This document shows, piece by piece, positions 3,619 through 64,000 of a stretch of DNA of 64,000 bases. Source of the stretch: an uncultured Bacteroidales bacterium. Its GTDB lineage: Bacteria > Bacteroidota > Bacteroidia > Bacteroidales > Paludibacteraceae. The stretch is from contig CALATT010000051.1 of assembly GCA_937891905.1 (NCBI GenBank), forward strand, positions 3,135-67,134. The letters are read 5' to 3'. Numbering within the stretch: position 1 is the stretch's first letter; every line of letters begins with the position of its first letter. The notes beneath the pieces are model-generated. The model was given only the letters and a program-made list of their open reading frames with translations, was not told where the DNA came from and ran no database searches. Position numbers and translations under genes: made by a program.

Positions 3619-3704
3619 CTCAAACTGCGATATTTTGCAGATTTTGCACTCTCAAACTGCGATATTTTGCAGATTTTGCACTCTCAAACTGCGATATTTT
3701 GCAC
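3619..3704. repeat. Tandem repeat of a 32-bp unit, 2.6 copies
   Basis: The unit ctcaaactgcgatattttgcagattttgcact occurs at 3619-3650 and identically at 3651-3682. A truncated third copy spans 3683-3704. Each unit contains ATTTTGCA twice. Confidence 0.9.
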
Positions 3705-3723
3705 AACAAACCTCACTGCCACC

Positions 3724-34524: not shown

Positions 34525-34545
34525 TCCATTTAACTTTATTTGACC

Positions 34546-35427: not shown

Positions 35428-35449
35428 ATTACACATTATTCTTGCCCAC

Positions 35450-40129: not shown

Positions 40130-41503
40130 ATGAGTTTAGTAAAGAGTATTTCAGGTATTCGCGGAACGATTGGCGGATATGTAGGGGAAGGACTCAACCC
40201 TGTAGATATAACGCGTTTCACCGCTGCTTATGCCACCCAGCGACCAGCGGCGATACCCAATAATAAGACAATTGTTGTGGGGCGTGACGCTCGACTGAGT
40301 GGACCCATGGTAGAGCATATCGTATGCGGCACATTAATGGGAATGGGATATAATGTAGTCAATATAGGACTCGCCACCACTCCTACCACCGAGTTGGCTG
40401 TTATAGGCGAAAAAGCAGCTGGAGGAATTATCCTCACCGCCAGTCATAACCCAAAGCAATGGAATGCACTCAAGTTGCTCAACGAGAAGGGCGAGTTCCT
40501 CAACGACCAAGAAGGAAAAGAAGTGCTCGCTATCGCAGAGAATGAGTCTTTTGTCTTTGCCGAAGTGGACCAATTGGGACAGATGACACATAAGGATTAT
40601 CTGCCTTACCATGTAAATGAAGTGCTCCAATTACCACTCGTGGATGTGGAAGCCATCAAAAAGCGCAATTTCATAGTGGCCATCGACTGCGTTAATTCTG
40701 TGGGCGGACTTGCTATACCAGCGATGCTCAAAGCACTCGGTGTGACAAACATCATCGAACTCTATTGCGAACCCAATGGTCAGTTCCCACACAACCCCGA
40801 ACCACTGCCTCAACACCTCACCGAAATAAGCGAGTTGCTCAAGCAAGGCAAAGCGGATCTTGGTTTTGTAGTAGACCCTGATGTGGACCGACTCGCTATT
40901 ATCTGCGAAGACGGATCGATGTTCGGCGAAGAATACACACTCGTCAGCATAGCGGACTACATCCTGGCCCACACACCTGGTAATACAGTGAGTAACATGT
41001 CTTCATCGCGCGCACTGAGTGATATAACACGCAAGCATGGTGGTGAATACACGGCAAGCGCTGTGGGTGAAGTAAATGTAGTGGCTCAAATGAAGAAAGT
41101 GAATGCTATCATCGGCGGTGAAGGAAATGGCGGAGTAATCTATCCAGCTTGCCATAGCGGTCGCGACGCTCTCGTGGGAGTAGCACTCTTCCTTAGCCAT
41201 ATGGCAAAAATGGACATGACCGTGAGTGCATATAGACAAACACTGCCTGAGTATTACATTAGCAAGAACCGTATTGACCTCACACCCGACACAGATATAG
41301 ACGCTATTCTCGCGCGCGTAAAAGATATATATAAGGAGGAACGCGTCAATGACATCGATGGTGTAAAGATTGATTTTGCAGAAGGATGGGTACATCTACG
41401 CAAGAGCAATACCGAACCTATCATTCGCGTCTATTCAGAGGCAGCTACGATGGACAAAGCTAATGCTTTGGCACAACAAGTGATGGCTATAATAAACGAA
41501 TAA
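40130..41503 (+). CDS. glmM: Phosphoglucosamine mutase (alpha-D-phosphohexomutase family)
   Basis: The active-site Ser loop is ILTASHNPKQWNALK and the metal loop is GFVVDPDVDR. GGEGNGG is also present. The length is 457 aa. Confidence 0.85.
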   Translation: MSLVKSISGIRGTIGGYVGEGLNPVDITRFTAAYATQRPAAIPNNKTIVVGRDARLSGPMVEHIVCGTLMGMGYNVVNIGLATTPTTELAVIGEKAAGGIILTASHNPKQWNALKLLNEKGEFLNDQEGKEVLAIAENESFVFAEVDQLGQMTHKDYLPYHVNEVLQLPLVDVEAIKKRNFIVAIDCVNSVGGLAIPAMLKALGVTNIIELYCEPNGQFPHNPEPLPQHLTEISELLKQGKADLGFVVDPDVDRLAIICEDGSMFGEEYTLVSIADYILAHTPGNTVSNMSSSRALSDITRKHGGEYTASAVGEVNVVAQMKKVNAIIGGEGNGGVIYPACHSGRDALVGVALFLSHMAKMDMTVSAYRQTLPEYYISKNRIDLTPDTDIDAILARVKDIYKEERVNDIDGVKIDFAEGWVHLRKSNTEPIIRVYSEAATMDKANALAQQVMAIINE

Positions 41504-42259: not shown

Positions 42260-42524
42260 CAAATATAGTATTGGAATACTGGTAGGACTACTGCTACCTG
42301 CTATCTTTGGGTTAACCTATATAGAAGTGATGAATCTATGGTACCCATTACAGACGCTGCAATTTCAGGCAGGCGGTGTATTAAGCAAACTGCTGCTTGT
42401 TTGCGTTTTTCCTGATTTAGCGCTTATTTTTGTATTTTACACCTTAGATACTTGGAGGTTGAGCAAAGGACTACTTATAGGTGCGTTACCCTATGTAATC
42501 GCCTCTATTTATGTATCGATGTGA
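42246..42524 (+). CDS. Small hydrophobic membrane protein (3 predicted TM helices)
   Basis: It is 92 aa long and overlaps the surE stop by 14 nt. The composition is hydrophobic. No motif was recognised. Confidence 0.35.
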   Translation: MERFDKYSIGILVGLLLPAIFGLTYIEVMNLWYPLQTLQFQAGGVLSKLLLVCVFPDLALIFVFYTLDTWRLSKGLLIGALPYVIASIYVSM

Positions 42525-43620
42525 TGATACGCGCGGCGGTATCAGCTGCTGATTGCTCTCCTAATAAAGAATTAATATGCTCGTAGAACGCGAGCATATT
42601 CTTTTTATATGCCTCGTCCGTTAGAATGCGTTCTAATTCTCTTATTATCTTCTCTTCCTTAAAATCATTCGCTACCAATTCGCGAATAACCTCGGTCTGA
42701 GCGAGTATATTAACCAATGTGAAGTAAGGTATAGAAAAAACAAGCGGTTGTGCCCAGCGCAGTAATCCTATTAACGGAGCACATGCCAAATGATAAACCG
42801 CCACTTGTGGGCATCCAAGCAAAGCTGTTTCTAAGGTAGCCGTACCTGAGTTTACTATCGCTGCTCGAGCATGGCGCACTGCATTGTATGTATCGCGTGT
42901 GAGCGTCTCTCTATCTGATAAATAAGGACTATAAAAATCATCGTCCAACCCAGGTGCTGCGCAGACTGTTATATGATAATCCGAGAACTTCCGCGCGGCG
43001 GATAGCATTGTAGGCAAACAATGATTCACCTCGCTTGCGCGCGAACCTGGCAGTATTGCTATCGTTGGTCGGGTGTCTCCGTCAGTTATCTCCGCATGTT
43101 GTGCTTTGTATGCGGCTATCTGTTCGGCTGTGGGATTACCCACATATGTACATGTATAGCCGTACTGCGCATAAAAAGAGGTCTCGAAGGGGAAGATACC
43201 TAATACCTCGTCGCATAAGCGCGCAATGCGATGGATACGGCGACGCTTCCACGCCCATACTTTGGGAGGAATATAATAGACGATTTTAGTGTTCGGCAAA
43301 TGCTTGCGGCAGAAAGCTGCTATGCGAAGATTAAAGGATGGGTAATCCACCAAGATGAGCACATCTGGGCGCTCAGTTAGCAATGCTTGACGAGCTATTT
43401 GGAAATTACGGCGGACCTTGCCCATATTGCGCAAGACCGCCGCAAACCCCATAAAAGCCATTTGGCTATAGTCCTGATAGAGACGACATCCAGCCTTCTG
43501 CATTTTCTCGCCACCCAAGCCAGCAAACCGACTATCGCCGTCCAATCGCTGGAGGTGGGTAATCAGTTGTGCTGCATGAGTATCACCAGACGCTTCGCCT
43601 GCTATCAGAAAATAGTTCAT
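42505..43620 (-). CDS. lpxB: Lipid-A-disaccharide synthase
   Basis: It has the N-terminal YFLIAGEASGDTHAA, DYPSFNLR and YYIPPKVWAWKRRR. The length is 371 aa. Confidence 0.9.
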   Translation of the reverse strand: MNYFLIAGEASGDTHAAQLITHLQRLDGDSRFAGLGGEKMQKAGCRLYQDYSQMAFMGFAAVLRNMGKVRRNFQIARQALLTERPDVLILVDYPSFNLRIAAFCRKHLPNTKIVYYIPPKVWAWKRRRIHRIARLCDEVLGIFPFETSFYAQYGYTCTYVGNPTAEQIAAYKAQHAEITDGDTRPTIAILPGSRASEVNHCLPTMLSAARKFSDYHITVCAAPGLDDDFYSPYLSDRETLTRDTYNAVRHARAAIVNSGTATLETALLGCPQVAVYHLACAPLIGLLRWAQPLVFSIPYFTLVNILAQTEVIRELVANDFKEEKIIRELERILTDEAYKKNMLAFYEHINSLLGEQSAADTAARIITSIHK

Positions 43621-51911: not shown

Positions 51912-51918
51912 TACACAA

Positions 51919-51948
51919 CGAAGCCCTTTCACGGGCTTCGTTATTTTA
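51919..51948. terminator. Bidirectional hairpin terminator between convergent genes
   Basis: The stem cgaagccc / gggcttcg encloses the loop tttcac and has a T-rich 3' flank. It overlaps the holA stop codon. Confidence 0.6.
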
Positions 51949-53010
51949 ATGCATTATTTTATAAATCAGTTCTTTCCACAAGTCCGCATCTTTGGCAGAA
52001 GGATTATTTATACCCTTCAATCGCGCATCCACCTCGCGCAGATAACCTATAATATAGAATACCTTACCCGCAGGATAATTACGCGCTGCCTCCGTGTAGT
52101 CCTTCACAAAGAATGGATTGATGCCCAACTCACGCGATACAGCTTCCTTGCTCTTATCGGGCATATAATGGTACATCAGCAGATTTGAAAAAAATGTGAA
52201 GAGCGGACTCAATTCGCGTATCATAGGATGGTCCTTACTGCTCGCGAAATAGTTTGTTATCTGCACCGCTTTGGCTATATTCTTCTTAACAAGCGCATTC
52301 TGCAATTCAATGATATTAAAATCCTTAGAAATACCTATATTACGCTCCACTAATTCAGCATTGATAACACGCACTCCTTCAGGACAACCATCTATCAGTT
52401 TGCGCAATGCACCTACAATAGCAGAGAGGTCTGTACCTATATGATCCGCCAGCAAAGGAGCCACGCGTGGGTCTATGGTCAATGCACTCGCTGCTTGTCC
52501 TTCTTGCTTGCGGCGACTCTCCGCCTTAGCATTAAAATCATTGATATACGCACTTATCCACCGTTCCACTTCGTAATCACGCAGTTTATCGCTCTGTAAC
52601 CACACCACTTGCGGATGGTCCGTCAGTTTTTTCCACACTCCTTGACGCTTATCGGGTTTGCCATTATAGCAAATAAGCAAAAGTGTTTGGTCCATCAAGT
52701 TATCCAAATAAGCAACCAATGCTTCCCATTTCTTCACCACTTGTGCCTCGCGCACAATAATCACCTTACGGCCACCCATCATGGAATAACCACGCGCGGC
52801 ACCTATCACCGTCGATATATCTGCGCCTGGTAAGTCACGACCATAGAGCACTTGCTGGTCAAACTCACGAGCCATCTCATCCAATACATTGGTAGAGATG
52901 AATTGGTAGAGTTGGTCAATATAATAAGCCTCCTCGCCACACGCAATATAAATAGGTGCATACTGCCCCGCTTGAAGCGTACGCATTATCTCATCAAACT
53001 TCTTAATCAT
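51946..53010 (-). CDS. holA: DNA polymerase III delta subunit
   Basis: It is 354 aa long. The N-terminal YAPIYIACGEEAYYIDQ pattern and the overall helical C-terminal domains are typical of HolA. Confidence 0.75.
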   Translation of the reverse strand: MIKKFDEIMRTLQAGQYAPIYIACGEEAYYIDQLYQFISTNVLDEMAREFDQQVLYGRDLPGADISTVIGAARGYSMMGGRKVIIVREAQVVKKWEALVAYLDNLMDQTLLLICYNGKPDKRQGVWKKLTDHPQVVWLQSDKLRDYEVERWISAYINDFNAKAESRRKQEGQAASALTIDPRVAPLLADHIGTDLSAIVGALRKLIDGCPEGVRVINAELVERNIGISKDFNIIELQNALVKKNIAKAVQITNYFASSKDHPMIRELSPLFTFFSNLLMYHYMPDKSKEAVSRELGINPFFVKDYTEAARNYPAGKVFYIIGYLREVDARLKGINNPSAKDADLWKELIYKIMH

Positions 53011-54613
53011 TGCTTGGAATGTAAATCATATATTTATACTCACTTCGGTCTATCTCTCTATACCCCTCAGCACGCAGCATATCCTCCAACGCACTCTGCG
53101 TATCCTTATAGGTGGGTTTGGTCTTAAAATGCGGAGCAAAAGTGCAGAATATAATAGGCCGCTCTCGGCGCACATAATCCTGGTACTTCGCCGTATATAC
53201 CTTATCAAAGATATTCGACCAAAATTCATTGTACACCGCCGCTTGGCAACCCGTCACCTCGCGCACCATATGCATGCGTTGTCCAACGGCTACTATGGTT
53301 GCATTACTATCAGCATACTGCTCATAATCAGCCTTCACTTGCTCCAACCACTCTGCTTCTTGGGCTGTGACCTTAATATGCTCGTATGGCGGCACAGAAG
53401 CCCAAGTATCCACCTGACTCAAATCACACTTACCCACACTATTCGTACTAAAACGATTCATAACAGCAAAAGCAAAAACAAACAAAAGAGGTAACAAATA
53501 CGCATATATCTCTTTTTTATGCTCTACCGCTGCGATAGGTAATAAGCACAACACAGCAGGGAATAATTTCATCCAAGCCGTATCCGTACCTAACGGAGCC
53601 ACTACCATGAGCAGCGCACCCCAACCTAATTCTTTCTTCTTAGACATAACAGCCAACACCAAGCATAGCGCAGAAATCATGTATGTCAAATCCATATTAT
53701 ACCACTGGGTTCTCTTAAGTGCAAAAGCAATATAGTGTGCCAACAAAAATCCAACTATCAATCCCACACCATACATTGCCGCATTACACCATGGTGCTTG
53801 TGACCACCGTTTATTCAACTCACGCCCCATAAACACTACTCCTACCCATATTGCTGCCATTCCAAAGAGCAATGCACCCTTCGTCCATAACTGCTCTATC
53901 ATCTTGCTTATCTGATGGCTACCCATCGCCGCATCCATATAGGCAGGTTTCATCACCACCCACGCAACACCATATAGCGCACCCGCACCGATAAGCACAG
54001 CACATAGATACCAGACAATATGACCAAGACGCTTCTTCCACGATTGATCATTAGCCACACACAACGCGCCAAGTATAATAGGCAACACCAAAATATTCGG
54101 GAAACGAACAACTATAGCCATACCCGTCACCACGCCCAATGCTATCAACCATACTCGCTTTTTTGTCCGTTGAAATCGAATTAAGATGCACCATAAAGCA
54201 GACAAACAAAGTACCGTCAGCGTACCTGGACTGAACTCTTGATAGGCTCCATAATTGATTAGCATCAAGGCAATGAAAAGCCATGACAGATTCGCCTTTC
54301 TCTGTTCGCGGTTGAGCAGTATGCAATAAGGCAGTATAATCGCTGCTATGACGCACAACCAAGCTACAAGGCGTAAAGGCATCAAGTGTTCACCCAATAA
54401 CTCCACCAATACATGCCCAATAACTATCGTGCCACTTGCCATCCATCCACCCTCTGCATGCGCATACTTATGCATCCAATAGAGCGGGTCCATTTCATTA
54501 CCCAAACCCTCAAATACATAACGCAGCGAGCATACGAGCGCGAATAAAATCAAAAGCCACCACCCGCAACGGACGAAATATGTTTTATTTTTATCCATTA
54601 TTATAATGCGCAT
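53003..54613 (-). CDS. Polytopic membrane protein with C-terminal soluble domain; putative GT-C-fold glycosyltransferase (ArnT/Gtr-type)
   Basis: About 11-12 hydrophobic helices are followed by a ~130-aa soluble C-terminus. An acidic motif, GNEMDP, lies in the first loop after TM1. Its operon context is the GtrB-like GT2 and small flippase-like proteins. An alternative ATG lies at 54598. Confidence 0.45.
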   Translation of the reverse strand: MRIIIMDKNKTYFVRCGWWLLILFALVCSLRYVFEGLGNEMDPLYWMHKYAHAEGGWMASGTIVIGHVLVELLGEHLMPLRLVAWLCVIAAIILPYCILLNREQRKANLSWLFIALMLINYGAYQEFSPGTLTVLCLSALWCILIRFQRTKKRVWLIALGVVTGMAIVVRFPNILVLPIILGALCVANDQSWKKRLGHIVWYLCAVLIGAGALYGVAWVVMKPAYMDAAMGSHQISKMIEQLWTKGALLFGMAAIWVGVVFMGRELNKRWSQAPWCNAAMYGVGLIVGFLLAHYIAFALKRTQWYNMDLTYMISALCLVLAVMSKKKELGWGALLMVVAPLGTDTAWMKLFPAVLCLLPIAAVEHKKEIYAYLLPLLFVFAFAVMNRFSTNSVGKCDLSQVDTWASVPPYEHIKVTAQEAEWLEQVKADYEQYADSNATIVAVGQRMHMVREVTGCQAAVYNEFWSNIFDKVYTAKYQDYVRRERPIIFCTFAPHFKTKPTYKDTQSALEDMLRAEGYREIDRSEYKYMIYIPSND

Positions 54614-55727
54614 TGATATAATCGCAAATCATATCCACCTCTTCTATCGTGAGGTCATAATACAAAGGCAATCGCACCAAGCAGTCTGCATAACGGTCAC
54701 ATTGCAGCAATGCCCGACCATCATGCTTATCTTGATAATAATCCGAACTATGCAAACTCAAGTAATGGAACACTGCCAAGATACCATTCGCTTTCATCGT
54801 CGCTATCAATGCCGTACGACTTGCCAAATCAGGCAACACCAAATAGAACATATGCGCATTAAGCGAAGCGTATTCAGGAATATGTGGCAAAGTAAAAAAG
54901 CCTTTGCTTGCTAAGGGTTCCAAGCGCTCTTTATAGCGATTCCACAACAACTTACGCTTTTCTTGTATCTCATCAACACTCTCTAACTGTGCCCAAAGGA
55001 ATGCTGCATTCACCTCACTCGGCAAAAACGAACTGCCCATATCCACCCATCCATACTTATTCACTTCACCACGGAAAAACTCTGCTCGGTTGGTACCCTT
55101 CTCCCAAATAATCTCCGCACGATGGATAAACTTCTCGTCATTAATAACCAGCAAACCACCTTCGCCGCCAGCCGTTATATTCTTCGTCTCATGGAAGGAG
55201 AACGCAGCAAGGTGACCAATACCACCGAGCGGTTGCCCCTTATAATACGAGTCAATAGCCTGCGCCGCATCCTCTACCACTATAAGGTTATGCTTTTTCG
55301 CTACCTCCATAATAGCATCCATATCGCATGCCACACCAGCATAATGCACAGGTACAATCACACGCGTACGAGGAGTAATAAGCGACTCCAAACTATCCGC
55401 ATCTAAGTTCGGGTTACAACCCATCGAGTCTGCAAAAACAATCTTCGCGCCCTCGCGCAAGAAAGCCAATGCCGTAGAAACAAAGGTATAACTTGGTACA
55501 ATAACCTCGTCGCCTGGCTGCAATCCACAAAGCATGGCGCACATCTCTAAAGCGTCCGTACCGCTCGTGGTGAGTAGCGTCTTCTTAAATCCATAACGGG
55601 ATTCAAACCACTGCTGGCAACGCTTAGTGAACTTACCATTACCTGACAACTTACCCTCATGAACCGCCTCGTACATGTAGTGCGTCTCTTTGCCTGTCAA
55701 ATGAGGTTTATTAAATGGAATCTGCAT
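54591..55727 (-). CDS. dTDP-4-amino-4,6-dideoxyhexose (Fuc4N/Qui4N-type) transaminase, DegT/WecE family
   Basis: It closely parallels E. coli WecE. Matching segments are IPFNKPHLTGKE, GKFTKRCQQWFE, PSYTFVSTA, the PLP-Lys motif FSFHETKNITAGGEGG, EKGTNRAEFFRGEVNKYGW and NAHMFYL. Confidence 0.85.
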   Translation of the reverse strand: MQIPFNKPHLTGKETHYMYEAVHEGKLSGNGKFTKRCQQWFESRYGFKKTLLTTSGTDALEMCAMLCGLQPGDEVIVPSYTFVSTALAFLREGAKIVFADSMGCNPNLDADSLESLITPRTRVIVPVHYAGVACDMDAIMEVAKKHNLIVVEDAAQAIDSYYKGQPLGGIGHLAAFSFHETKNITAGGEGGLLVINDEKFIHRAEIIWEKGTNRAEFFRGEVNKYGWVDMGSSFLPSEVNAAFLWAQLESVDEIQEKRKLLWNRYKERLEPLASKGFFTLPHIPEYASLNAHMFYLVLPDLASRTALIATMKANGILAVFHYLSLHSSDYYQDKHDGRALLQCDRYADCLVRLPLYYDLTIEEVDMICDYINAHYNNG

Positions 55728-55742
55728 AGTGATTGATTGTAT

Positions 55743-56108
55743 TTATAAGAGCGATACATCCCACCATCCTCCCGGATGGCAAAAGAACAGCACCGCGCCT
55801 ATCATAATGATAATTATTGCTATTATTTTTCGTTTCGTTATCTTCTCGCCAAAACACATCCATGCCGCGATAGGTATCAGCAAGTAATTAATACACTCGA
55901 TAATACTTACCTCTTGAGCCAACACCCCCATATAAATAGCCAATAGATTGATTACCAAACTGACCACCATCAGTCCATAACCACCTATCACCCATATATT
56001 CACATACTCACGCCACCAAGAAGCATGGCGCTTCTTAGCACTCTTCTTGAGCATCATTTGACTCACCACGCCCAAAACGGCACTTACTATAACCAGTATA
56101 TATCCCAT
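55743..56108 (-). CDS. Small 4-TM membrane protein, SMR/EamA-half (ArnE/ArnF- or GtrA-role flippase subunit candidate)
   Basis: It is 121 aa long with four hydrophobic helices. It is paired with a second small 4-TM gene, as arnE/arnF are. Confidence 0.55.
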   Translation of the reverse strand: MGYILVIVSAVLGVVSQMMLKKSAKKRHASWWREYVNIWVIGGYGLMVVSLVINLLAIYMGVLAQEVSIIECINYLLIPIAAWMCFGEKITKRKIIAIIIIMIGAVLFFCHPGGWWDVSLL

Positions 56109-56109
56109 C

Positions 56110-56451
56110 TTATTCGTTCGATTTAGCGTACAATGCGATACCTCCCATAATAATCCCGGTAGCCAGTAGTTTCATCGGCGTAATGGGTTCGTCATAGCAG
56201 ATAGCCAACAAGACCATAATGAAAAACAAACTCAAGCCCTTGAACATATACGCCACACCCAACTCTATACGCTTGAGTATCTGCTGCCACGCAATAGCAT
56301 AAACACCCAATGTGGCCACCAAGAGCACAAAACCCACACACCACTCCATGGTGAGTGGTTGCTGCAAACCCGTGTACTTCATAATCACCGATATACCTGC
56401 ATAGAAGAGGTACACGAGCACTAAGGATATATATTGCACTGTCTTATTCAT
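56110..56451 (-). CDS. Small 4-TM membrane protein, SMR/EamA-half (second flippase subunit candidate)
   Basis: The start MNKTVQYISLVLVYLF at 56451 forms an ATGA overlap with the upstream stop. The longer ORF-track start at 56565 would overlap the acetyltransferase by 118 nt. Confidence 0.55.
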   Translation of the reverse strand: MNKTVQYISLVLVYLFYAGISVIMKYTGLQQPLTMEWCVGFVLLVATLGVYAIAWQQILKRIELGVAYMFKGLSLFFIMVLLAICYDEPITPMKLLATGIIMGGIALYAKSNE

Positions 56452-56990
56452 CGCATTTCTTTGATCACTCTCGCAGGATTGCCTGCCACCACTGCATAAT
56501 CGGGCACATCGTGTGTCACAATCGCACCCGCAGCCACTACCGCCTCTTTGCCGATACGAGTACAACTGGGTAAGATAGTCACATTACTGCCTATATAGGC
56601 CTTTTGCTCTATCACCAAGGTGGTCTGTTCGGTAGGATTAACTCCCGTGCGGCGCAACTCGCTTATATCATGCTTATGCGTAATAATATGCGTGCCTTGC
56701 AAAATCCACACTTCGTCCTCAATAGTCAGATGCCCTGTATAATCAAGCAGCACATCGTGACTGATAAAGACATTCTTACCTATCGAGATACTACCCGTCA
56801 CTTGCCTATGCTCCCTATCGATATGCACATTATGCCCCACATGTAATCCCTTACCTGCCTTGAAAAGGCGGCGGTACTTACTATCACGCCACTGCAATCC
56901 AATAGGCAAGTCAAACCAATTACTCATTACCAAGCGCTGACCCACCATGCGGTGTAATTGCTCTAAATTATAACGAACTTGTGCATTCAT
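56448..56990 (-). CDS. Left-handed beta-helix (hexapeptide-repeat) acyl/acetyltransferase
   Basis: The hexapeptide repeats and C-terminus read AYIGSNVTILPSCTRIGKEAVVAAGAIVTHDVPDYAVVAGNPARVIKE. Confidence 0.8.
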   Translation of the reverse strand: MNAQVRYNLEQLHRMVGQRLVMSNWFDLPIGLQWRDSKYRRLFKAGKGLHVGHNVHIDREHRQVTGSISIGKNVFISHDVLLDYTGHLTIEDEVWILQGTHIITHKHDISELRRTGVNPTEQTTLVIEQKAYIGSNVTILPSCTRIGKEAVVAAGAIVTHDVPDYAVVAGNPARVIKEMR

Positions 56991-56992
56991 AT

Positions 56993-57922
56993 TTATACGA
57001 TTTCATCGATCATAAACTTAGGACGCTGTTTGGTTTCCAAGAAAATACGACCTATATACTCACCCAATACACCCAAGAAAGCAAAATTAAGACCGAATAA
57101 GAAGAGCATGAGAACCATCATACTCGTCCATCCTGCCACCACATTACCCACCAACTTATATATAATCAGCGCCAATGCAGCCATCATACTTCCCACACAT
57201 AGTAATGCACCCAGATAGGTTACAATACGGATAGGGAACATAGAGAAAGAGAAAATACGAGCGAAAGTGAGGGCTAACATCTTACTCAGATTATATCCAC
57301 TCTTACCTGCAAAACGCGCATCACGCTTGAGCGGTACTGCTACATAACGGCTACCGATATAATAGAGCAAACTAACCGTCGTAGCTGTTTTCTCTGGGAA
57401 ATTACGCAGTTCCTCCACTACACTCTTTTTCATCACACGGAAGATACCCAAACGCGGCATGGTATGTATCTCCGTAATGGAATTACTTACTCTCTGGAAA
57501 AGACGAGAAACAGCCAACTTAAATCGGCTATCCTTACGCTCCTCCCATTGGGCTATCGCCATTGTGGCCTTTTCATCTGCCAACAACGCGTCTATCAACA
57601 CAGGTATATCCTCAGGCCTATCTTGCAAATCTGAATCCATCAGTACAATCAGTTCTTTGCTCGTTAACGACAAACCCGCAGCGATAGCACTCTGCTGACC
57701 GAAATTGCGACTCAAACGCACCGCCTTGATAGATGCGTTCGCTTGACGAACAGCCAACATCTGCAACCATGAGTCATCACGACTACCATCGTCCACCAAG
57801 ATAATCTCGTAATCAGCCGTGATAGACTCTAATACAGGACTGAGACGCTTAATCAACTCGTGAATAACTTCACTGTCATTATAAATCGGCACTACCACCG
57901 AGATAGATTGTTTGTATATCAT
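56993..57922 (-). CDS. GT2 polyprenyl-phosphate glycosyltransferase (GtrB/ArnC/DPM1-like)
   Basis: Motifs are ISVVVPIYND, ILVDDGSRDDS, LSRNFGQQSA and MDSDLQDRPEDI. There are two C-terminal TM helices followed by GEYIGRIFLETKQRPKF. Confidence 0.85.
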   Translation of the reverse strand: MIYKQSISVVVPIYNDSEVIHELIKRLSPVLESITADYEIILVDDGSRDDSWLQMLAVRQANASIKAVRLSRNFGQQSAIAAGLSLTSKELIVLMDSDLQDRPEDIPVLIDALLADEKATMAIAQWEERKDSRFKLAVSRLFQRVSNSITEIHTMPRLGIFRVMKKSVVEELRNFPEKTATTVSLLYYIGSRYVAVPLKRDARFAGKSGYNLSKMLALTFARIFSFSMFPIRIVTYLGALLCVGSMMAALALIIYKLVGNVVAGWTSMMVLMLFLFGLNFAFLGVLGEYIGRIFLETKQRPKFMIDEIV

Positions 57923-57932
57923 ATTTTTTCTA

Positions 57933-60230
57933 TTAGTCGAATGTTACAAATGGGAACGATTGAATATCCTCTTCATACACCCGCAGCAAGTCACTCATCG
58001 TCTCGCCACGCATCACCAAGTGACCAATACGATCATAGGCTGTACGGAAAGCATGCACTTCCTCGCCTATCTGCGGATAAATATCGCACGCCACCACCTC
58101 CTTACATGACGGTATTTGGCGTCCTTTCACCACACCTGTCTGCGTAGAGAAAGGAGTAAACACCAACGCAGGATAAAGAGCTTGTACAGGTATCTCTGGC
58201 AGCGATAATCCACACGCGCCGCAGAGTATGTATTCGTAGTAATTGATTCCAAAACACTCGCTCACCAATTCAGGCAAACATGTAGCACCCGCGCGCGCAC
58301 CAATCTCCAGCACATACACCTTATCATCACTCAGGATAAAATCCGCATTGATAGCACAGTTATCTATTTGCAAAGCGGCTATACATTTGCGCAACTGTTC
58401 CTCCACATCTGCCTGCAACGATTGTTCCGATGAATAGGGCGCAAAATGCCCCACAGGAATACCACTTGCACCGCGATAAATAAGATCCCCGTGTAGCATC
58501 ACAAACTGCAACTCACCATTGCGCACATATGCCTGCGCACCAAATTCCTCTCCATCCACAAACTGCTCCAGAACCATACTACTCGCATGCGTGTACGACT
58601 GTACCTCCGCATAAGCTGCTCGAAGGGTCGTCTCATCTCGACACACCACTACCCCTTTGCTACCACTACCATCCACAATCTTCAGCACCACAGGATAACC
58701 CAATTCGGTTGCTGCCATTAGCATAGATTCCTCAGAAAAAACTTCCCTATAGGCAGCCGTGCGCACGCCCTCACGCGCAAAGGCGTTTTTCATCAGCAAT
58801 TTATTGCTCGACACTACAGAAGACTCGTAACTGGGGCCCAACAAACCCAACGCGTCCACCACCTTACCTATCGTAGGCAAGATAAAATCCGACCCACAAC
58901 CTACTATCGCGTCTATCTCTTCTTCCTTCGCTATGCCAATCACCGCCTCAGCGTCCATAATATCCACATCATACCATTGCGAGGCCAACGCATAACCAGG
59001 GTAATCACCAGGATAACCCAACACCACCACTCTACAACCCATCTCTCGTGCCGTTTGTATGAGCGGATATTGATAGCGACCACCACCCAACACCATAACC
59101 GTCTTACCACGAAGTGTCTCAAATCGTCCGTTGGAATCGCAATAAATGAAATATCCACTCCTATCGCCGCTACAAGTCAAAGCGCGTATCTCCGTATCCG
59201 TCTGCTCAGCACAAACAATACTCGCATATTGCGACGCATGCGTGATATATGACTGCACCTCTGGTGTCTCGGCACTCAAGAAATGAACACCACTATACGC
59301 ATTTTTCGTCTTCACAGGCACCACCTCCATACCAAGTGCCACTTCAATCACTCCTTGCACAAAATCATACCCCGTACTCAGACGAACCAAATCGCTACCA
59401 ATAAAATCACCACCCATTCGTCCGCCTATCTCCATCACCACCACACGACCCTCAGCGGTAATCTTATACTCCGCATGACTCGCACCATTAGTAAGCGCCA
59501 AAGCATCCAAGGCACGCATAGTGATCGCATAAATATCGTCTTGCTTCGCTGCTGGTAAGTTAGAAGGTTGGTGGTGAGCCAACTCCACAAAATGCGGAGC
59601 TCCGGTTGTCTCTTTATCAGTAATCTGCAGCGCGTAGTGCGTGCCCCTACACGATAACATCTCCACACTGATCTCGCGTCCCTCAATAAACTCCTCCACC
59701 ATTGCTTCGCCCTTAAAAGACACACGCACTGCCTCCTTAATAGCAGCTTCCAATTGTGCCTTATCCTCCACCTTACTCACCGCCAAACTGCCACTCCTAT
59801 CCGACGGCTTCACAATAAGCGGAAAAGACATATACTCCAGTGCTTTCTCGTCGTATTCATGCACACATACATAGCGAGGACAATCCACTCCCGCGCCACT
59901 GAGCGCTTGACGCATCAGATACTTATTATTAGCACCCAAAGCCGCAGCATAACTATTCCCCGCCAATCCCATCTGCTCTGCCACATACGCCACTGTAGGC
60001 GCCGCCACATCGCTCGCTATCGTACATATACCATCTATCTTCTCCTCGCGGCAGATAGCCAAAATAGTCTCTTTCTCCACAATAGAGATAGGATAGAATA
60101 CATCGCATAAATCGCGACACACTGCTCCTTCTTCCCACGCAAAGCAAAGCGTACGCAACCCCATATTGTGGGCGCGTTCTATCAAGGGTTTCTGCAAATA
60201 ACCGGCTCCTATAATGGCTAATGTCTTCAT
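57933..60230 (-). CDS. Fused tandem ATP-grasp ligase (two complete ATP-grasp modules, 765 aa)
   Basis: Module 1 contains AIIGAGYLQKPLIERAHNMG, PLIVKPSDRSGS, MVEEFIEGREISVE and VVVMEIGGRMGGD. Module 2 contains VMVLGGGRYQYPLIQTAREMG, PVVLKIVDGSGSKG, VLEQFVDGEEFGAQ and VYVLEIGARAGA. Confidence 0.75.
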   Translation of the reverse strand: MKTLAIIGAGYLQKPLIERAHNMGLRTLCFAWEEGAVCRDLCDVFYPISIVEKETILAICREEKIDGICTIASDVAAPTVAYVAEQMGLAGNSYAAALGANNKYLMRQALSGAGVDCPRYVCVHEYDEKALEYMSFPLIVKPSDRSGSLAVSKVEDKAQLEAAIKEAVRVSFKGEAMVEEFIEGREISVEMLSCRGTHYALQITDKETTGAPHFVELAHHQPSNLPAAKQDDIYAITMRALDALALTNGASHAEYKITAEGRVVVMEIGGRMGGDFIGSDLVRLSTGYDFVQGVIEVALGMEVVPVKTKNAYSGVHFLSAETPEVQSYITHASQYASIVCAEQTDTEIRALTCSGDRSGYFIYCDSNGRFETLRGKTVMVLGGGRYQYPLIQTAREMGCRVVVLGYPGDYPGYALASQWYDVDIMDAEAVIGIAKEEEIDAIVGCGSDFILPTIGKVVDALGLLGPSYESSVVSSNKLLMKNAFAREGVRTAAYREVFSEESMLMAATELGYPVVLKIVDGSGSKGVVVCRDETTLRAAYAEVQSYTHASSMVLEQFVDGEEFGAQAYVRNGELQFVMLHGDLIYRGASGIPVGHFAPYSSEQSLQADVEEQLRKCIAALQIDNCAINADFILSDDKVYVLEIGARAGATCLPELVSECFGINYYEYILCGACGLSLPEIPVQALYPALVFTPFSTQTGVVKGRQIPSCKEVVACDIYPQIGEEVHAFRTAYDRIGHLVMRGETMSDLLRVYEEDIQSFPFVTFD

Positions 60231-61819
60231 TCTACTTGAATCTGAATTAAAGCATAGTTACTATTATGACATATGGGACGAATCTTGGTTTTTACACCAT
60301 AATGCTTCTCTATCTGCTCACATATACGCGGTATGGCCGTACGAGGCTGGTGATACTCAACCGATGTAAATACATACATATCATCACGCAATAACACACG
60401 ATAGCTATCACCTACATGCCTATGCAGTGGACACCAAGTTAACCATCCTAAGGTATATTTTTTATATGGCAGTGCCCATATATTCCATGGATTAGCACCT
60501 TCCATTCGCATAGCAGAACCAAGCGTCATCACATATGCATCACTCGGCACATAACTCAGCACTGGTAACTGCTGTTCACGCCATACATACCTATTATGTT
60601 TAGCTATGATCACTTCGTTATGTATCTGCCATACATACCATCCACTCAAAACAACCATCACCACGCCTATTCCCCACCTACGCTTTAGTCCTGTTGTCTT
60701 AGGCAGTAACATAAAATCCGTCACCAAAAGGGGCAGTAACATACAGATAAACACCCTATATTTCAAGAATCCATCCATACTCACATGCACTATCAATGCC
60801 GCCACAAAGAGCGAATAAGCAATCAAGAAAATATATTTGGTCTTATTACCTGTCGTTAGAATCATCAGCACCAACAATGCCAATAAAATACTTATCTCCA
60901 CCGCGTATTTCTCCATACGATGCAGATTAGACAACTGCTCATCCAATGGCACCGCACCCACTATAGCACTGAGTTGCCGAATAGCCTTCAGATCTATTTG
61001 CTCTGGATCAGGTATAAAACGCAAGAGCAGTTGATAATCTATCCAATCCACTTCCTTTGGCAACTGATTAGGTTGCAGTTTATACGCATTCGGATTGTCA
61101 TTCAACTGCGCCCGCAATTGATTATACTCACGATAATAACGCCATTCACTATCACGCTCATATGCATAACGATTAACCGCACGACAACCTACAATCAGCA
61201 CTAACATCACCACGATAGGTATATATCTGCGCCAATTCAAACGCAATACATACACAATGATTGGCGCCATCAATAATCCCACTAATCCAGCAGCCATAAA
61301 TCGAATCAAAGCGGCTATCACTACCAGCAACACACCCAACCAGCGACTACTCGTTCGCTCGCGCATTAGCAACACACAACCCGCCAAGCACACAAAACCT
61401 GCGGTCGTCGTAAACTGCAAAGAAATCACTATACGGCTCCATAATACATATAGAACCAACAACCACAAACCCTTTTCCCAACGAGCACGATTAGGAGTAG
61501 TAAGAATACAATAGGATAAAAAACTCATGGAGAGTATATGCAGCACCATGAATGAAAGTGTGTACCATTCAATGCCACTCGTCCAACCATACAAAAGCGT
61601 CAGCACATACCCATAAAGCACATTGATATATACCAAGTGATAATCAGGCACTCCCGAATACGAACCATTCGCTATCATCGCCATCATGATATCATCGTTC
61701 TCCTCATAACGGATTGGCAACACCGCTGACAAAATTGCCACAAAAGCGATATTCGCCATCAGCACCAAGGCAAACAGCGCATAACGATTAGCTACTATTT
61801 TTTGTATCACTTGGTTCAT
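60227..61819 (-). CDS. Polytopic membrane protein with C-terminal soluble domain; second putative GT-C-like protein
   Basis: It is 530 aa long. An acidic motif, RYEENDDIMM, lies right after TM1. Many helices are followed by a ~130-aa soluble C-terminus. Size and layout match the 53003-54613 product. Its stop forms an ATGA overlap with the ATP-grasp gene. Confidence 0.4.
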   Translation of the reverse strand: MNQVIQKIVANRYALFALVLMANIAFVAILSAVLPIRYEENDDIMMAMIANGSYSGVPDYHLVYINVLYGYVLTLLYGWTSGIEWYTLSFMVLHILSMSFLSYCILTTPNRARWEKGLWLLVLYVLWSRIVISLQFTTTAGFVCLAGCVLLMRERTSSRWLGVLLVVIAALIRFMAAGLVGLLMAPIIVYVLRLNWRRYIPIVVMLVLIVGCRAVNRYAYERDSEWRYYREYNQLRAQLNDNPNAYKLQPNQLPKEVDWIDYQLLLRFIPDPEQIDLKAIRQLSAIVGAVPLDEQLSNLHRMEKYAVEISILLALLVLMILTTGNKTKYIFLIAYSLFVAALIVHVSMDGFLKYRVFICMLLPLLVTDFMLLPKTTGLKRRWGIGVVMVVLSGWYVWQIHNEVIIAKHNRYVWREQQLPVLSYVPSDAYVMTLGSAMRMEGANPWNIWALPYKKYTLGWLTWCPLHRHVGDSYRVLLRDDMYVFTSVEYHQPRTAIPRICEQIEKHYGVKTKIRPICHNSNYALIQIQVE

Positions 61820-61823
61820 TCTA

Positions 61824-62297
61824 TTACCAAATTGCTTGAATCAATATAACCATCATCCAGCCGCAGCAGATCAGTTTGAGCACCGTGCCACATAAAATAC
61901 CTATAAAACTACCCCAACCGGCACGCAAGGCTTCTTTCTGTCCCTTGCCACCTATCAACTCTCCCACTATTGCACCCACCAGCGGACCGACGATAATACC
62001 TATCGCGCCAAAGAACATACCCACAAATACACCTATCGTACTTCCCCATACGCCGTATTTCGTTCCGCCATAACGCTTCGTACCCCAAGCAGGAATCACA
62101 TAATCCAACACAGATACGAGTATTGTCACCACACCCCATATAACTAAGGTTTGCCACGAGAAGTCAATACGCTCCGTAGCTTGGGCAATCCACAAACCCG
62201 CATAAGCCACAGGAATACCTGGCAATCCTGGTAATATACTACCCAATATGCCGATTATCATACATATCCCTGCAATAACAAGTAATACTATTTCCAT
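61824..62297 (-). CDS. DUF456-family membrane protein
   Basis: The Gly-rich TM helices are GSILPGLPGIPVAYAGLW..., WGTKRYGGTKYGVWGS and GPLVGAIVGELIGG, typical of DUF456/YqgC-like proteins. Confidence 0.65.
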   Translation of the reverse strand: MEIVLLVIAGICMIIGILGSILPGLPGIPVAYAGLWIAQATERIDFSWQTLVIWGVVTILVSVLDYVIPAWGTKRYGGTKYGVWGSTIGVFVGMFFGAIGIIVGPLVGAIVGELIGGKGQKEALRAGWGSFIGILCGTVLKLICCGWMMVILIQAIW

Positions 62298-62303
62298 TTT
62301 TTA

Positions 62304-63299
62304 TTATATTTTTTTTCTCATCAACATAGCACCTAATCGGTACACCAACGGACAATGCGCGTACATATACCGCCCATACTCAACCATCTCGCCACCAAAC
62401 TCCGCCTTGAAATCACGCACACCATATTGCTCATCAGGACGACCCGCGCCCATCAAATCCAATTGTGCTATACCCATACGCTCAGCCAATTGTATCTCTG
62501 CGTACTTAGTGAGCGAAGCGGGAGAGATCACACGCCGCTGGTCATCACGACCACACGCATACCATTCATACATCACCCGACCTTCCCACAAGATACACAC
62601 CGAACCACCAATAATTCGCCCTTCATGCTCTATTAAGATGAAACGACACACATCTGAGACATACAAACGCTCCCATGTATCCCACGAAGGAAGTGGCTTA
62701 TGTATCCGACGCACATATAAGTCGCGCAGCACATCATAATACTCTCTTACTTGCACCAAGGTGGGTTGCTCCACCACCCGTACTCCTTTCTGCACCGACG
62801 AATCAATACGCCTACGCTTACTCTTACCTATCCGCGAAATAGCCGCCTGTGCATTGCTCGTATCAATCCGTATATTCAAATGCGGCATATACCGCCACCC
62901 ATCTTGCTCTACCACTCCGCGCCATGCACTATGGTCACACAGATTACGAATCTCCACATAAATAGTGTCACTCGTCTGCTCCTTAATAGCCGCCATCAAT
63001 CGGCGATAAGCCTCAGCACTAATATCATCACTCACCATCACTCCACCCATAATCACCGCACGGCGACTCAACCACTGCCCTATCTTAATTCGCGCTTGTG
63101 GACGCATGATGACAGCCACACCACATAGCATCTCTTCCTCAGCCACACCCACTACCTCCATACGATAATCAGGCAAAGAAGAGAGCAATCGATACGCCTC
63201 CTCTGTTTGCCACCAAGTAGCAGTAGAGGACTCACGCACCAACTGCGCCCATTGCCTCTTATCTATCTGCTCATATGTGCGTAGCACGCTTATTCCCAT
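62304..63299 (-). CDS. FemAB-like / GNAT-fold aminoacyl (peptidyl) transferase family protein
   Basis: The C-terminal pattern is VMYEWYACGRDD...LTKYAEIQLAERMGIAQLDLMGAG...YGVRDFKAEFGGEMVEYGRY, as in COG2348/FemAB-type enzymes. The ATG at 63299 (MGISVL) is preferred over 63428. Confidence 0.6.
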   Translation of the reverse strand: MGISVLRTYEQIDKRQWAQLVRESSTATWWQTEEAYRLLSSLPDYRMEVVGVAEEEMLCGVAVIMRPQARIKIGQWLSRRAVIMGGVMVSDDISAEAYRRLMAAIKEQTSDTIYVEIRNLCDHSAWRGVVEQDGWRYMPHLNIRIDTSNAQAAISRIGKSKRRRIDSSVQKGVRVVEQPTLVQVREYYDVLRDLYVRRIHKPLPSWDTWERLYVSDVCRFILIEHEGRIIGGSVCILWEGRVMYEWYACGRDDQRRVISPASLTKYAEIQLAERMGIAQLDLMGAGRPDEQYGVRDFKAEFGGEMVEYGRYMYAHCPLVYRLGAMLMRKKI

Positions 63300-64000
63300 C
63301 GCCTGTCTTTTGCTAATAACCGTCCCAAACCATGCAACCAAGTGGTTGCCACCATATGGCGCGCATAGGACGGACTGTACGAACGGATACGCTTCGCATT
63401 GCGCAGACGAAGGCGCATCGTATGCCACTTACGCAACCAGCGATTAGACACAACCTTCCCACCTTGACTTTTCTCCTCACCTAATCGACCCTCGAGCATA
63501 TCTACCAACAAAACCTCAGCACGCCGAGCACAACGATGGGTATAGAATGGCGCTTCCGCTTGCGGCAAACCCAAGTATTTCACCAAGATATACATATACA
63601 CTTGCCATACATCCATCAGCGCCAAACCACGCAAGTCGCGCTCTAACTGCTCACGGTCTATATCCGATGCACGGCGGTGAAGCAGCAACACTAAATCACA
63701 TAACTGACGAATAGACGCTCCTTGCGACAACACATGCTCCCACGAATGAAGCATCACCATCAATGCGTTAAAAGTCACTTCAGGCACACGAACCGTCAAT
63801 CCATCCACTTCTATCTCCTCCGCCTCACGCATTCCTATTGCCTCCATACAAGCATAACGGCGCACATCTGTCGGGTGTTGCAAACCCATCGAAACACGGT
63901 GTACCTCAATAGACACCCCATCAGCAATCAAGTTGTAATGCTTGTAATGATCCAACTCCTCATCAAAGCGAAGAGCGTTAGGAAAAGTAGCGCGCATCGC
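63290..64000 (-). CDS. NTP_transf_5-like (uncharacterised nucleotidyltransferase family) protein, N-terminus outside the window
   Basis: The frame stays open to the window edge. The helical C-terminal part (SIRQLCDLVLLLHR...DREQLERDL...) resembles the PF14907-type family. This is a weak motif-level call. Confidence 0.4.
   Translation of the reverse strand, partial: AMRATFPNALRFDEELDHYKHYNLIADGVSIEVHRVSMGLQHPTDVRRYACMEAIGMREAEEIEVDGLTVRVPEVTFNALMVMLHSWEHVLSQGASIRQLCDLVLLLHRRASDIDREQLERDLRGLALMDVWQVYMYILVKYLGLPQAEAPFYTHRCARRAEVLLVDMLEGRLGEEKSQGGKVVSNRWLRKWHTMRLRLRNAKRIRSYSPSYARHMVATTWLHGLGRLLAKDRRWE

Follow-up and report, generated by a model that had tools for sequence, protein, structure and literature searches.

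A conserved, uncharacterised Bacteroidales operon that combines an ATP-grasp ligase with the genes of a predicted Arn/Gtr-type glycosylation pathway

What might a bacterium be building when one of its operons places an ATP-grasp ligase among the genes of an Arn- or Gtr-like sugar pathway? The question is raised by a stretch of 64,000 nucleotides (hereafter the window, meaning the whole stretch analysed) from contig CALATT010000051.1 of the metagenome-assembled genome (MAG) of an uncultured gut/rumen Bacteroidales bacterium of the Paludibacteraceae, in which the ORF listing shows twelve co-directional open reading frames (ORFs) on the minus strand from 51946 to 64000, namely an array of eleven genes (53003-64000) followed by holA. 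A preliminary reading of the letters alone (the sequence-only reading) knew of no described system that combines these functions, and our literature search indeed found no description of such a system, nor any paper linking ATP-grasp enzymes to 4-amino-4-deoxyquinovose (Qui4N), 4-amino-4-deoxyfucose (Fuc4N), viosamine, WecE or ArnT. The system is real, conserved and uncharacterised, and its conserved core consists of the ATP-grasp ligase, the WecE-type aminotransferase, a family 2 glycosyltransferase (GT2) of the polyprenyl-phosphate type, two small ArnE/ArnF-like proteins and one or two large membrane proteins. We consider it reasonably likely that the operon specifies a three-component system of the Arn/Gtr type for extracytoplasmic glycosylation, with an N-acylated 4-amino-4,6-dideoxyhexose as the donor sugar, all steps of the pathway being inferred from homology and gene context. 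The general scheme is already known; the sugar-tailoring step is probably new, as is, probably, one family of glycosyltransferases with the GT-C fold.

Does the arrangement recur beyond this genome? A species-level scan, in which an alignment of the double ATP-grasp served as the query against one genome per GTDB species, returned 538 relatives, and the counts given here cover the best 80 loci (cited by L numbers), gene presence being taken from a tblastn search of the loci with the twelve proteins of the window and from gene-order maps built by ORF clustering. Identical or near-identical copies were found in metagenome assemblies only, and the closest relatives are Paludibacteraceae MAGs at 96% and 93% identity. 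WecE is found in 71 of the 80 loci (median identity 75%), the GT2 in 59, the two small membrane proteins in 55 (Ea) and 54 (Eb), a 530-residue membrane protein here called MP530 in 39, and the PMT_2 protein, always the last of the module, in 38; lower counts were obtained for holA (32), NTP_transf_5 (26), FemAB (12, and adjacent in only four: L004, L005, L028 and L029) and DUF456 (4). About 35 species-level Paludibacteraceae/Bacteroidales MAGs keep the gene order of the window at protein identities of 44-89%, the order common to them being (WbaP-like)-NTP5-MP530-ATPgrasp-GT2-acyltransferase-Ea-Eb-WecE-GT-C-holA, and the arrangement thus exceeds chance. Furthermore, ATP-grasp, GT2, WecE and the putative flippase are present together in 51 loci, 38 of which add MP530 and/or the PMT_2 protein. 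As many as 21 of the 51 sit outside the holA synteny, with other gene orders and flanks, in Bacteroidaceae, in other Bacteroidales (the bin of L036 carries an Azospirillum label) and in two Firmicutes, whose loci (L026 and L027) read WecE-ATPg-ATPg-LbH-GT2-Ea-Eb-RmlA-RmlB. This recurrence makes the tie of the ATP-grasp to the Arn-like genes a functional one, and not merely an inherited one. The mining of gene neighbourhoods that the sequence-only reading had suggested therefore finds the core co-conserved, including outside the holA synteny. One of its broader claims fails on the same counts: the first five genes do not form a co-conserved ligase block, given the rarity of FemAB and DUF456. 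Nor is the composition of the window the common type, as most relatives have a single ATP-grasp, which corresponds to the N-half of the protein in the window, together with a PglD-type acyltransferase of the left-handed beta-helix (LbH) fold.

What, then, does the ligase do? The ATP-grasp protein of 765 residues (57933-60230) is a fusion of an N-half (residues 1-368) of the conserved, WecE-associated type and a C-half (369-765) resembling PurD and L-amino-acid ligases, with LAL_C2. Pfam recognizes ATP-grasp_4 (123.8 bits), ATP-grasp_3 (92.9), GARS_A (57.6, in the C-half) and LAL_C2 (45.0), all above their cut-offs, and among PDB entries the C-half matches 4dim_A (PurD-like, 3e-55) and the N-half 3vot (an L-amino-acid ligase, 1e-26). 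The N-half also matches Ddl models, L-amino-acid ligases match both halves, and the ATP-grasp motifs are intact in both; no NCBIfam equivalog cut-off was reached by the protein. The second ATP-grasp type is a separate gene in L026, L036 and L050, and is fused to the first in the window lineage, which has a WbbJ-like LbH enzyme.

The company kept by the N-type ATP-grasp is more informative about its pathway. It is fused to WecE in both orders (precomputed Pfam, the domain order having been checked by BLAST), and other fusions join it to short-chain dehydrogenase/reductase (SDR) dehydratases/epimerases, GT2, hexapeptide and GNAT acyltransferases, Bac_transf, GtrA and a flippase-like domain with four transmembrane (TM) segments of the Ea type. 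The ATPg-WecE fusion, a cluster of 103 sequences, forms with a GT2 a two-gene island between rho and housekeeping genes, in which the ATP-grasp domain is the sole candidate for the N-acylating enzyme. The ATPg+WecE pair has a WecF-like GT56 and ABC-transporter genes as its neighbours in 10 other loci, which points to a Fuc4N-type sugar; the pair thus serves both Leloir and undecaprenyl-phosphate (Und-P) routes, and most likely acts on the nucleotide sugar. By these associations the ATP-grasp belongs to the sugar-nucleotide pathway, and the tie to amino-sugar synthesis that had been claimed from the window alone is borne out both by the co-occurrence with WecE and by the fusions to WecE, GT2, SDR and flippase-like proteins. 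Accordingly placed, the double ATP-grasp protein is predicted, most likely, to N-acylate the 4-amine of the sugar with one or more amino acids. PurD is itself an ATP-grasp enzyme that joins glycine to a sugar amine. Moreover, the ATP-grasp domain of Campylobacter jejuni Cj1438 forms amide bonds on a capsule sugar (PMC11800379), and O antigens offer known cases of amino sugars that carry amino acids in amide linkage (PMC7685785).

Several variations on the ligase were observed among the relatives. In two proteins (P0076 and P0080) an Ea-like 4-TM domain stands at the C-terminus of the ATP-grasp and tethers the ligase to the putative flippase, an arrangement which, judged by sequence, may leave room for an ATP-grasp acting on the lipid-linked sugar. 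In L028 (11187-12555), and also in L017, L029, L033 and L054, genes for a mesaconyl-CoA hydratase/MaoC protein and an HpcH/CitE-type lyase directly follow the ATP-grasp gene, and this insertion suggests that these lineages make an uncommon (di)carboxylic acyl group with which to modify the sugar. Finally, an asparagine-synthase-like amidotransferase (591 residues; L022:2986-4761) occurs in polysaccharide loci of the ABC-transporter type that also carry the WecF-like GT56 (L022, L045, L059, L061, L067 and L080), directly next to the ATP-grasp gene in L022, L045 and L059; by analogy with WbpS in Porphyromonas gingivalis, the enzyme may amidate the carboxyl group of the attached amino acid.

The other soluble and small membrane proteins of the core can be arranged around this step. 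The pyridoxal-phosphate-dependent aminotransferase (54591-55727) exceeds the cut-offs of both WecE equivalog models (NF008687, 555 bits for a cut-off of 375; TIGR02379, 518.9 for 434.85) and misses that of the ArnB model (NF008658, 205 bits versus 631), and it is predicted to convert dTDP-4-keto-6-deoxyglucose into dTDP-4-amino-4,6-dideoxygalactose (dTDP-Fuc4N). A plausible source of dTDP-glucose is the product of an rmlA-like glucose-1-phosphate thymidylyltransferase gene (34540-35427, plus strand; PF00483, 249 bits), which lies 19 kb from the operon and is 60% identical to the RmlA-like gene inside the L026 module. The GT2 (56993-57922; PF00535, 88.6 bits) has PgfS as its top NCBIfam match (180.7 bits), followed by ArnC (178.9 bits versus a cut-off of 529), both over the full length and both below the equivalog cut-offs, and its C-terminal TM segments lie at residues 223-286. 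It is best described, on sequence, as an ArnC/GtrB/PgfS-like enzyme of the polyprenyl-phosphate glycosyltransferase type with a C-terminal membrane anchor, and it is a predicted Und-P-sugar synthase. The adjacent LbH (hexapeptide) acyltransferase (56448-56990), which resembles WbbJ, WcaF and MAT enzymes, scores 68.6 bits with WbbJ and 61.7 with NeuD/PglB/VioB, all below the cut-offs, and is predicted either to cap the aminoacyl amine or to O-acetylate the sugar; LbH enzymes of this kind were counted in 25 of the 80 loci and PglD-type ones in 28.

Two small membrane proteins complete this set. Ea (56110-56451; 113 residues, EamA/SMR-type) matches EamA at 28.2 bits, and Eb (55743-56108; 121 residues, EamA-type) gives weak EamA and ArnE matches, the ArnE scores of the pair being 25.8 and 16.8 bits (cut-off 92) and the ArnF score 18.3 (cut-off 99). 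Both are listed as 4-TM proteins, three to four TM segments being predicted, both have EamA/ArnE-like matches at or below threshold, and they stand beside the GT2 in about 55 loci; neither is of the GtrA family (PF04138). Together, Ea as the ArnE-like half and Eb as its ArnF-like partner, they may form a heterodimeric flippase for the Und-P-linked sugar.

Which proteins would then use the flipped sugar? The protein of 536 residues that ends the array (53003-54613) passes the gathering cut-off of PMT_2 (PF13231, 41.5 bits for 26.1), has at least nine TM segments and is ArnT-like, which makes it a predicted periplasmic transferase of the GT-C type. The other large polytopic protein, MP530 (60227-61819), is the one case in which the domain calls of the sequence-only reading, otherwise reproduced throughout by Pfam and NCBIfam, found no family in these databases; it has no PDB sequence match either, and sequence and profile searches of PDB with both large proteins found nothing. 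MP530 nevertheless stands for a family that comprises 4151 representative clusters (50% identity) and has an invariant acidic motif (E39-E40-N41-D42-D43) after TM1 and the invariant residues D42, D43, E84-W85-Y86, Q135, T137, R173, Y220 and R355. A first AlphaFold2 model from a shallow alignment (predicted local distance difference test, pLDDT, 71) gave non-significant GT-C matches, whereas the model from a deep alignment reached a pLDDT of 94.3 and a predicted template modelling score of 0.93. With the latter, Foldseek placed ArnT at the top (5ezm, E 5.4e-6, probability 1.0; 5f15, 9.4e-6), followed by ALG9, EmbA/B, ALG3, EmbC and ALG6, all of them GT-Cs that depend on polyprenyl-phosphate sugars, with RodA and WzxE at E>2. 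The GT-C-like nature that had been proposed for the protein thus holds at the level of structure, and on this model MP530 is taken to be a new GT-C family, and not Wzy, WaaL or Wzx; it would act as a second periplasmic transferase using an Und-P-linked sugar. When the two membrane-protein families were compared with each other by hhalign, E was 0.04-0.08 and the probability about 1%. The logic of arnBC-arnEF-arnT and gtrABC that had been read into the last six genes is also retained, as it rests on a WecE equivalog, an ArnC/PgfS-like GT2, the EamA-type halves and the PMT_2 protein.

The slot after WecE is variable in other lineages: it holds a PMT_2 protein in L036, a DUF6044 protein in L064 and, in several loci, proteins that lack a Pfam match, and hidden Markov models of the two GT-C families miss these other terminal membrane proteins of the related loci. 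By analogy, this variety recalls the diversity of GtrC. The DUF6044 protein (462 bits; L064:8035-9666) fills the terminal-transferase slot of an ATPg-GT2-flippase-WecE module, and DUF6044 may be another family of polyprenyl-phosphate-sugar-dependent transferases.

Taken in order, the pathway would run as follows. RmlA and RmlB would make dTDP-4-keto-6-deoxyglucose, an rmlA-like gene being present in the window and rmlB lying elsewhere, and WecE would transaminate it to dTDP-Fuc4N. The N-terminal ATP-grasp would activate a carboxylate, most likely that of an amino acid, as an acyl phosphate and join it to the sugar 4-amine, a reaction that would take the place of N-acylation by WecD or ArnA and pull the transamination forward; in the window lineage, the fused PurD/L-amino-acid-ligase-like domain might add a second residue. 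The LbH acyltransferase could then cap the amine or O-acetylate the sugar. Next, the membrane-anchored GT2 would move the sugar onto undecaprenyl phosphate, the two EamA-type proteins would flip the lipid-linked sugar in the manner of ArnE/ArnF, and the PMT_2-type 536-residue protein and MP530 would, on the periplasmic side, pass it to two acceptor sites, which probably belong to lipopolysaccharide (LPS) or another surface glycan.

How does such a pathway compare with the systems already described? The Arn pathway, which places 4-amino-4-deoxy-L-arabinose on lipid A, shares with the one predicted here a 4-keto sugar nucleotide that is transaminated and N-acylated, a GT2 that moves the sugar to Und-P, a small 4-TM pair for flipping and transfer by a GT-C. 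In contrast to Arn, the window has WecE, a dTDP-6-deoxyhexose enzyme, instead of ArnB, N-acylation would be carried out by an ATP-grasp instead of a formyltransferase and would probably be permanent, and there are two GT-Cs. None of the twelve products contains the formyltransferase, SDR decarboxylase or polysaccharide deacetylase domains of ArnA and ArnD, and the GT2, Ea and Eb appear, from their scores, to belong to the same homologous superfamilies as ArnC, ArnE and ArnF without being their equivalogs. Two GT-Cs in a single operon are also known in Pgf. The three-component systems, such as GtrA/GtrB/GtrC of Shigella and Salmonella, CsbB/GtcA/YfhO, PgfS/PgfM1/PgfM2 of Streptococcus mutans and the pentofuranose systems (PMC11127046; PMC7389260), likewise combine a GT2 Und-P-sugar synthase, a small flippase (putative here) and a GT-C, and the terminal transferase of the present loci varies as GtrC does. 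Unlike them, the window would use a purpose-built N-acyl amino-dideoxy sugar and not glucose, N-acetylglucosamine or a pentofuranose, its flippase would be an EamA/ArnEF-type pair and not GtrA, and the tailoring enzymes WecE, ATP-grasp and LbH lie inside the module.

Other comparisons concern the sugar. The dTDP-Fuc4NAc branch (WecE-WecD-WecF) of enterobacterial common antigen (ECA) is similar in its WecE equivalog and in the GT56 beside the ATPg+WecE pair of the 10 related loci; it differs in that the window has an ATP-grasp next to WecE instead of the WecD GNAT acetyltransferase, and in that transfer would proceed via Und-P and a GT-C, and not by WecF onto lipid II of ECA. Neither a WecD GNAT nor a WecF GT56 was found in the window operon by Pfam or NCBIfam. 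In the Wbp/Vim pathway of P. gingivalis and Tannerella forsythia, VimA puts serine or glycine on an amino sugar (PMC7468200). This pathway also yields an aminoacylated amino sugar in the LPS of Bacteroidota, and VimA is related to FemAB, as is the FemAB-type protein of the window; in contrast, the scaffold would here be a 6-deoxyhexose instead of a di-N-acetyl uronic acid, the ligase is ATP-dependent and not VimA/VimE, and the FemAB-type protein misses TIGR03019. Lastly, the window protein resembles the ATP-grasp amide ligases (PurD, D-Ala-D-Ala ligase, BacD, BL00235 and the C-terminal domain of Cj1438) in its fold, its intact motifs, its LAL_C2 domain and its GARS_A, Ddl and L-amino-acid-ligase matches, but is embedded among nucleotide-sugar and Und-P enzymes, to which its homologues are fused. 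In Cj1438 the sugar provides the carboxylate (PMC11800379), whereas here it most likely provides the amine.

Several points weigh against the N-aminoacyl pathway. The organism is an uncultured MAG and the case rests on sequence and structure prediction. Much of the synteny is confined to one family, so that part of it may be phylogenetic inertia. The flippase-half scores are far under the ArnE and ArnF cut-offs, and the ArnC-type GT2 enzymes characterised so far use, to our knowledge, UDP-sugars, which would make the use of a dTDP-sugar unusual. The rmlB (rfbB) gene, for which the sequence-only reading had proposed a search elsewhere in the genome, was not found within the 64-kb window; the Firmicutes modules L026 and L027 include an RmlA-RmlB pair. 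The sequence of the ATP-grasp does not reveal its substrate, which may be a non-amino-acid carboxylate, and the fusions to membrane proteins would allow action on the lipid-linked sugar. Nearly all relatives with a single ATP-grasp also encode a PglD/VioB-like N-acetyltransferase; were this enzyme to acylate the 4-amine, no obvious substrate would be left for the ATP-grasp.

This last point is the basis of the alternative that survives best, although we regard it as fairly unlikely: the donor would be plain Fuc4NAc or Qui4NAc, its 4-amine acetylated by the LbH or PglD-type enzyme, and the ATP-grasp (and FemAB) would have another target, namely the lipid-linked intermediate, some small peptide or metabolite, or an amide bond formed later on the acceptor. 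A PglD/NeuD/VioB-like or WbbJ-like LbH enzyme does fill the slot after the GT2 in most loci, enzymes of family TIGR03570 are by name N-acetyltransferases of 4-amino sugars, and the fusions of ATP-grasp to membrane proteins of lipid-linked sugars (Ea-like, GtrA and Bac_transf) would suit a later substrate. Nevertheless, the ATP-grasp/WecE fusions in both orders and the [ATPg-WecE]+GT2 island that lacks an acetyltransferase argue against a ligase acting elsewhere, the ATP-grasp tracks WecE more tightly than it does either LbH or PglD-type enzymes, and O antigens are known to contain N-acetyl-aminoacyl amino sugars, whose formation requires both activities (PMC7685785).

Could the system be a true analogue of Arn, placing an (aminoacyl) amino sugar on a lipid A phosphate and thereby conferring resistance to cationic peptides? 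ArnT is the best structural match of MP530, the best NCBIfam matches of the other proteins include ArnC, ArnE and ArnF, lpxB lies in the window, and two EptA-like genes diverge just upstream in L005. Against this, no Arn equivalog cut-off is reached, the operon lacks ArnA and ArnD, its aminotransferase is of the WecE and not the ArnB kind, and an N-acylated, capped sugar would not be cationic. Moreover, varied terminal membrane proteins are typical of Gtr-type decoration of O antigens and other glycans and not of a fixed lipid A acceptor, and the WbaP-like phosphoglycosyl transferase encoded directly upstream in about 29 relatives provides a polysaccharide context; both features favour LPS or a surface polysaccharide over lipid A as the acceptor, and modification of lipid A is judged improbable.

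Far less credible still is an ordinary O-antigen or capsule locus dependent on Wzx/Wzy or an ABC transporter, in which the large proteins would be Wzy, WaaL or Wzx, as the sequence-only reading had itself considered. Weak EpsG (Wzy-like) Pfam matches do occur in three of 40 distant MP530 relatives (best E 8.6e-4), and the ATPg+WecE pair is found elsewhere in classical polysaccharide loci. However, Foldseek ranks ArnT and other GT-Cs first and leaves RodA and WzxE without significance, the 536-residue protein passes PMT_2, and Pfam and NCBIfam detect in the operon no Leloir GT1/GT4, Wzx, Wzy/EpsG, WaaL, Wzz, Wza, ABC transporter or initiating transferase, the only glycosyltransferase that they assign being of the polyprenyl-phosphate type. 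The equally remote idea that two unrelated modules, ligases and Arn-like pathway, are adjacent by chance or shared ancestry only draws on the mosaic G+C content and on FemAB and DUF456, which are not co-conserved with the rest, but is excluded for the ATP-grasp by its fusions and by its recurrence in different orders, flanks and phyla; for FemAB, DUF456 and NTP_transf_5 it may hold.

The N-aminoacyl pathway needs to be delimited from the genes that merely accompany it. The array opens with an NTP_transf_5 gene (63290-64000, the ORF being listed as 63290-63997), of which only the 3' part is present, as its frame runs on beyond base 64000; it matches PF14907 at 46.4 bits, over profile positions 125-248 only. 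Full-length orthologues have about 350-390 residues, the one in L005 (5759-6937) having 392 and scoring 112.8 bits, and as an intergenic gap and then divergent genes lie ahead of this orthologue, NTP_transf_5 is taken as the first gene of the array. It is paired with MP530 in 26 loci. The claimed gene set, eleven genes and then holA, consequently stands except that its first member is incomplete. FemAB (62304-63299; 331 residues, FemAB/Acetyltransf_6-type), a putative aminoacyl-tRNA-dependent aminoacyl transferase, matches PF13480 at 32.4 bits (cut-off 22) and PF02388 at 26.8 bits (cut-off 24, C-terminal part only), and in PDB 9wqy, an aminoacyl-tRNA-dependent peptide synthase (2.3e-9), with FemX at 0.03; no match to the VimA-type pep-cterm_femAB model TIGR03019 was obtained at E<=0.01. 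DUF456 (61824-62297) is a small membrane protein with four TM segments (Pfam, 133 bits). FemAB was tried as a core part of the system and was ruled out by its co-occurrence. It is adjacent only in the species group of the window and in L028 and L029; its other homologues, whether located 3.6-6 kb upstream or found in other genomes, belong to a polysaccharide cluster of the order GT1-FemAB-DUF354-UDP-sugar-dehydrogenase-epimerase, and this separate cluster, together with the rarity of both genes in the 80 loci, identifies FemAB and DUF456 as lineage-specific recruits; to count FemAB, DUF456 and NTP_transf_5 as a ligase half of the system was therefore an overreach. Similarly, holA (DNA polymerase III delta; 51946-53010), which overlaps the stop of the GT-C gene by 8 nt, is a syntenic neighbour and not a part of the system, since in L020 and L021 it lies elsewhere, on the other strand, with the module intact.

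With regard to transcription, the ORF listing reproduces the tight packing that had been described for the eleven minus-strand genes, with junctions from a 23-nt overlap to a 15-nt gap and ATGA overlaps at 60227-60230 and 56448-56451; the overlap between WecE and the GT-C gene is, however, 8 nt and not 23 if the GT-C starts at the methionine at 54598 (531 residues), the start that was chosen independently by the gene call in L001. A bidirectional hairpin 3' of holA (51917-51942) is the only clear terminator-like one, and a scan for sigma-70 promoters gave no enrichment, this consensus not applying to Bacteroidota. The G+C content is about 0.50 over 57500-60000 (ATP-grasp) and 62500-64000 (NTP_transf_5/FemAB) as against 0.43-0.46 elsewhere in the operon, which fits a mosaic, laterally assembled origin.

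The surroundings of the array differ among relatives. A gene for a WbaP-like Bac_transf phosphoglycosyl transferase (about 504 residues; L007:6858-8372), which lies directly upstream of NTP5/MP530 in the loci mentioned above, is found in most Paludibacteraceae relatives and is missing from the species group of the window. Upstream of it in the relatives are genes of the GT1, FemAB, DUF354 and UDP-GlcNAc 2-epimerase types, with an additional pair whose sequences resemble a putative Gfo/Idh/MocA oxidoreductase and aminotransferase; taken together, these genes would be reminiscent of a Wbp/Vim-like set. In L005, the sister genome, just past the position of the window end (969-5059, minus strand), two paralogous phosphoethanolamine-transferase-like genes (Sulfatase in both, EptA_B_N in one) diverge from NTP_transf_5, and by sequence this EptA-like pair represents a second envelope-modification function next door.

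Elsewhere in the window, a minus-strand ORF of 4044 residues (5782-17916) combines a pectate lyase, DUF4874/DUF4832, five Listeria-Bacteroides repeats and several Ig-like domains, and is a predicted giant surface or secreted pectin-degrading protein; NCBIfam finds no C-terminal domain of a secretion system of type IX (T9SS) in its last 149 residues. Immediately upstream of the rmlA-like gene, in a plus-strand pair spanning 33418-35427, lies a gene whose product, interrupted by a large insertion, belongs to the F420-0:gamma-glutamyl ligase family (PF01996, 150 bits); the two make an odd pair for a Bacteroidales genome, and after the rmlA-like gene comes a hybrid two-component regulator (35381-39028). 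At 9-13 kb from the operon, lpxB (lipid-A-disaccharide synthase; 42505-43620, minus strand) and a phosphohexomutase gene (40130-41503, plus strand) are ordinary envelope housekeeping genes.

One further lead concerns protein anchoring. In Prevotella intermedia, Ye et al. (2025) found T9SS cargo amide-linked by the PorU sortase to an N-alanyl-deoxyhexose in LPS, VimA and VimE being absent and the route by which alanine reaches the deoxyhexose being reported as unknown (PMC11969387). This compound is of the same kind as the predicted product of ATPg+WecE, an N-aminoacyl amino-dideoxyhexose. It is conceivable, but we think it distinctly unlikely, that ATPg+WecE is the missing route to such sugars and that the operon installs one, bearing an amino acid or a dipeptide, on LPS from the periplasm via Und-P and two GT-Cs, MP530 of the new family among them; were this true, the result would be a peptide-like surface handle, serving as a sortase acceptor or otherwise. 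Among related loci, the ATP-grasp genes also turn up in bins with Prevotellaceae labels: one labelled Leyella stercorea (L037) has ATP-grasp, GT2 and PglD-type LbH genes with only a partial WecE match at the contig end, and one labelled Segatella copri (L059) has ATP-grasp and WecE. The low probability reflects the conserved N-acetyltransferase, which would block the free amine needed by the sortase, and the lack of a T9SS signal in the window, in which no T9SS C-terminal domain was found in the secreted-type proteins of 4044 and 975 residues.

Many O antigens and capsules contain amino sugars to which amino acids are joined by an amide bond, and so does the Prevotella T9SS linking sugar; the enzyme that forms the amide on 6-deoxy amino sugars is reported as unknown (PMC11969387), and the WecE-linked or WecE-fused ATP-grasp is a concrete candidate for it. 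MP530, for its part, would represent a large GT-C family (more than 4000 clusters) that lacks a Pfam model. If the model is true, the Arn/Gtr paradigm would come to include a peptide-decorated sugar of dTDP origin in Bacteroidales of the gut and rumen, whose surface glycan chemistry shapes their interactions with phages, the immune system and antimicrobial peptides.

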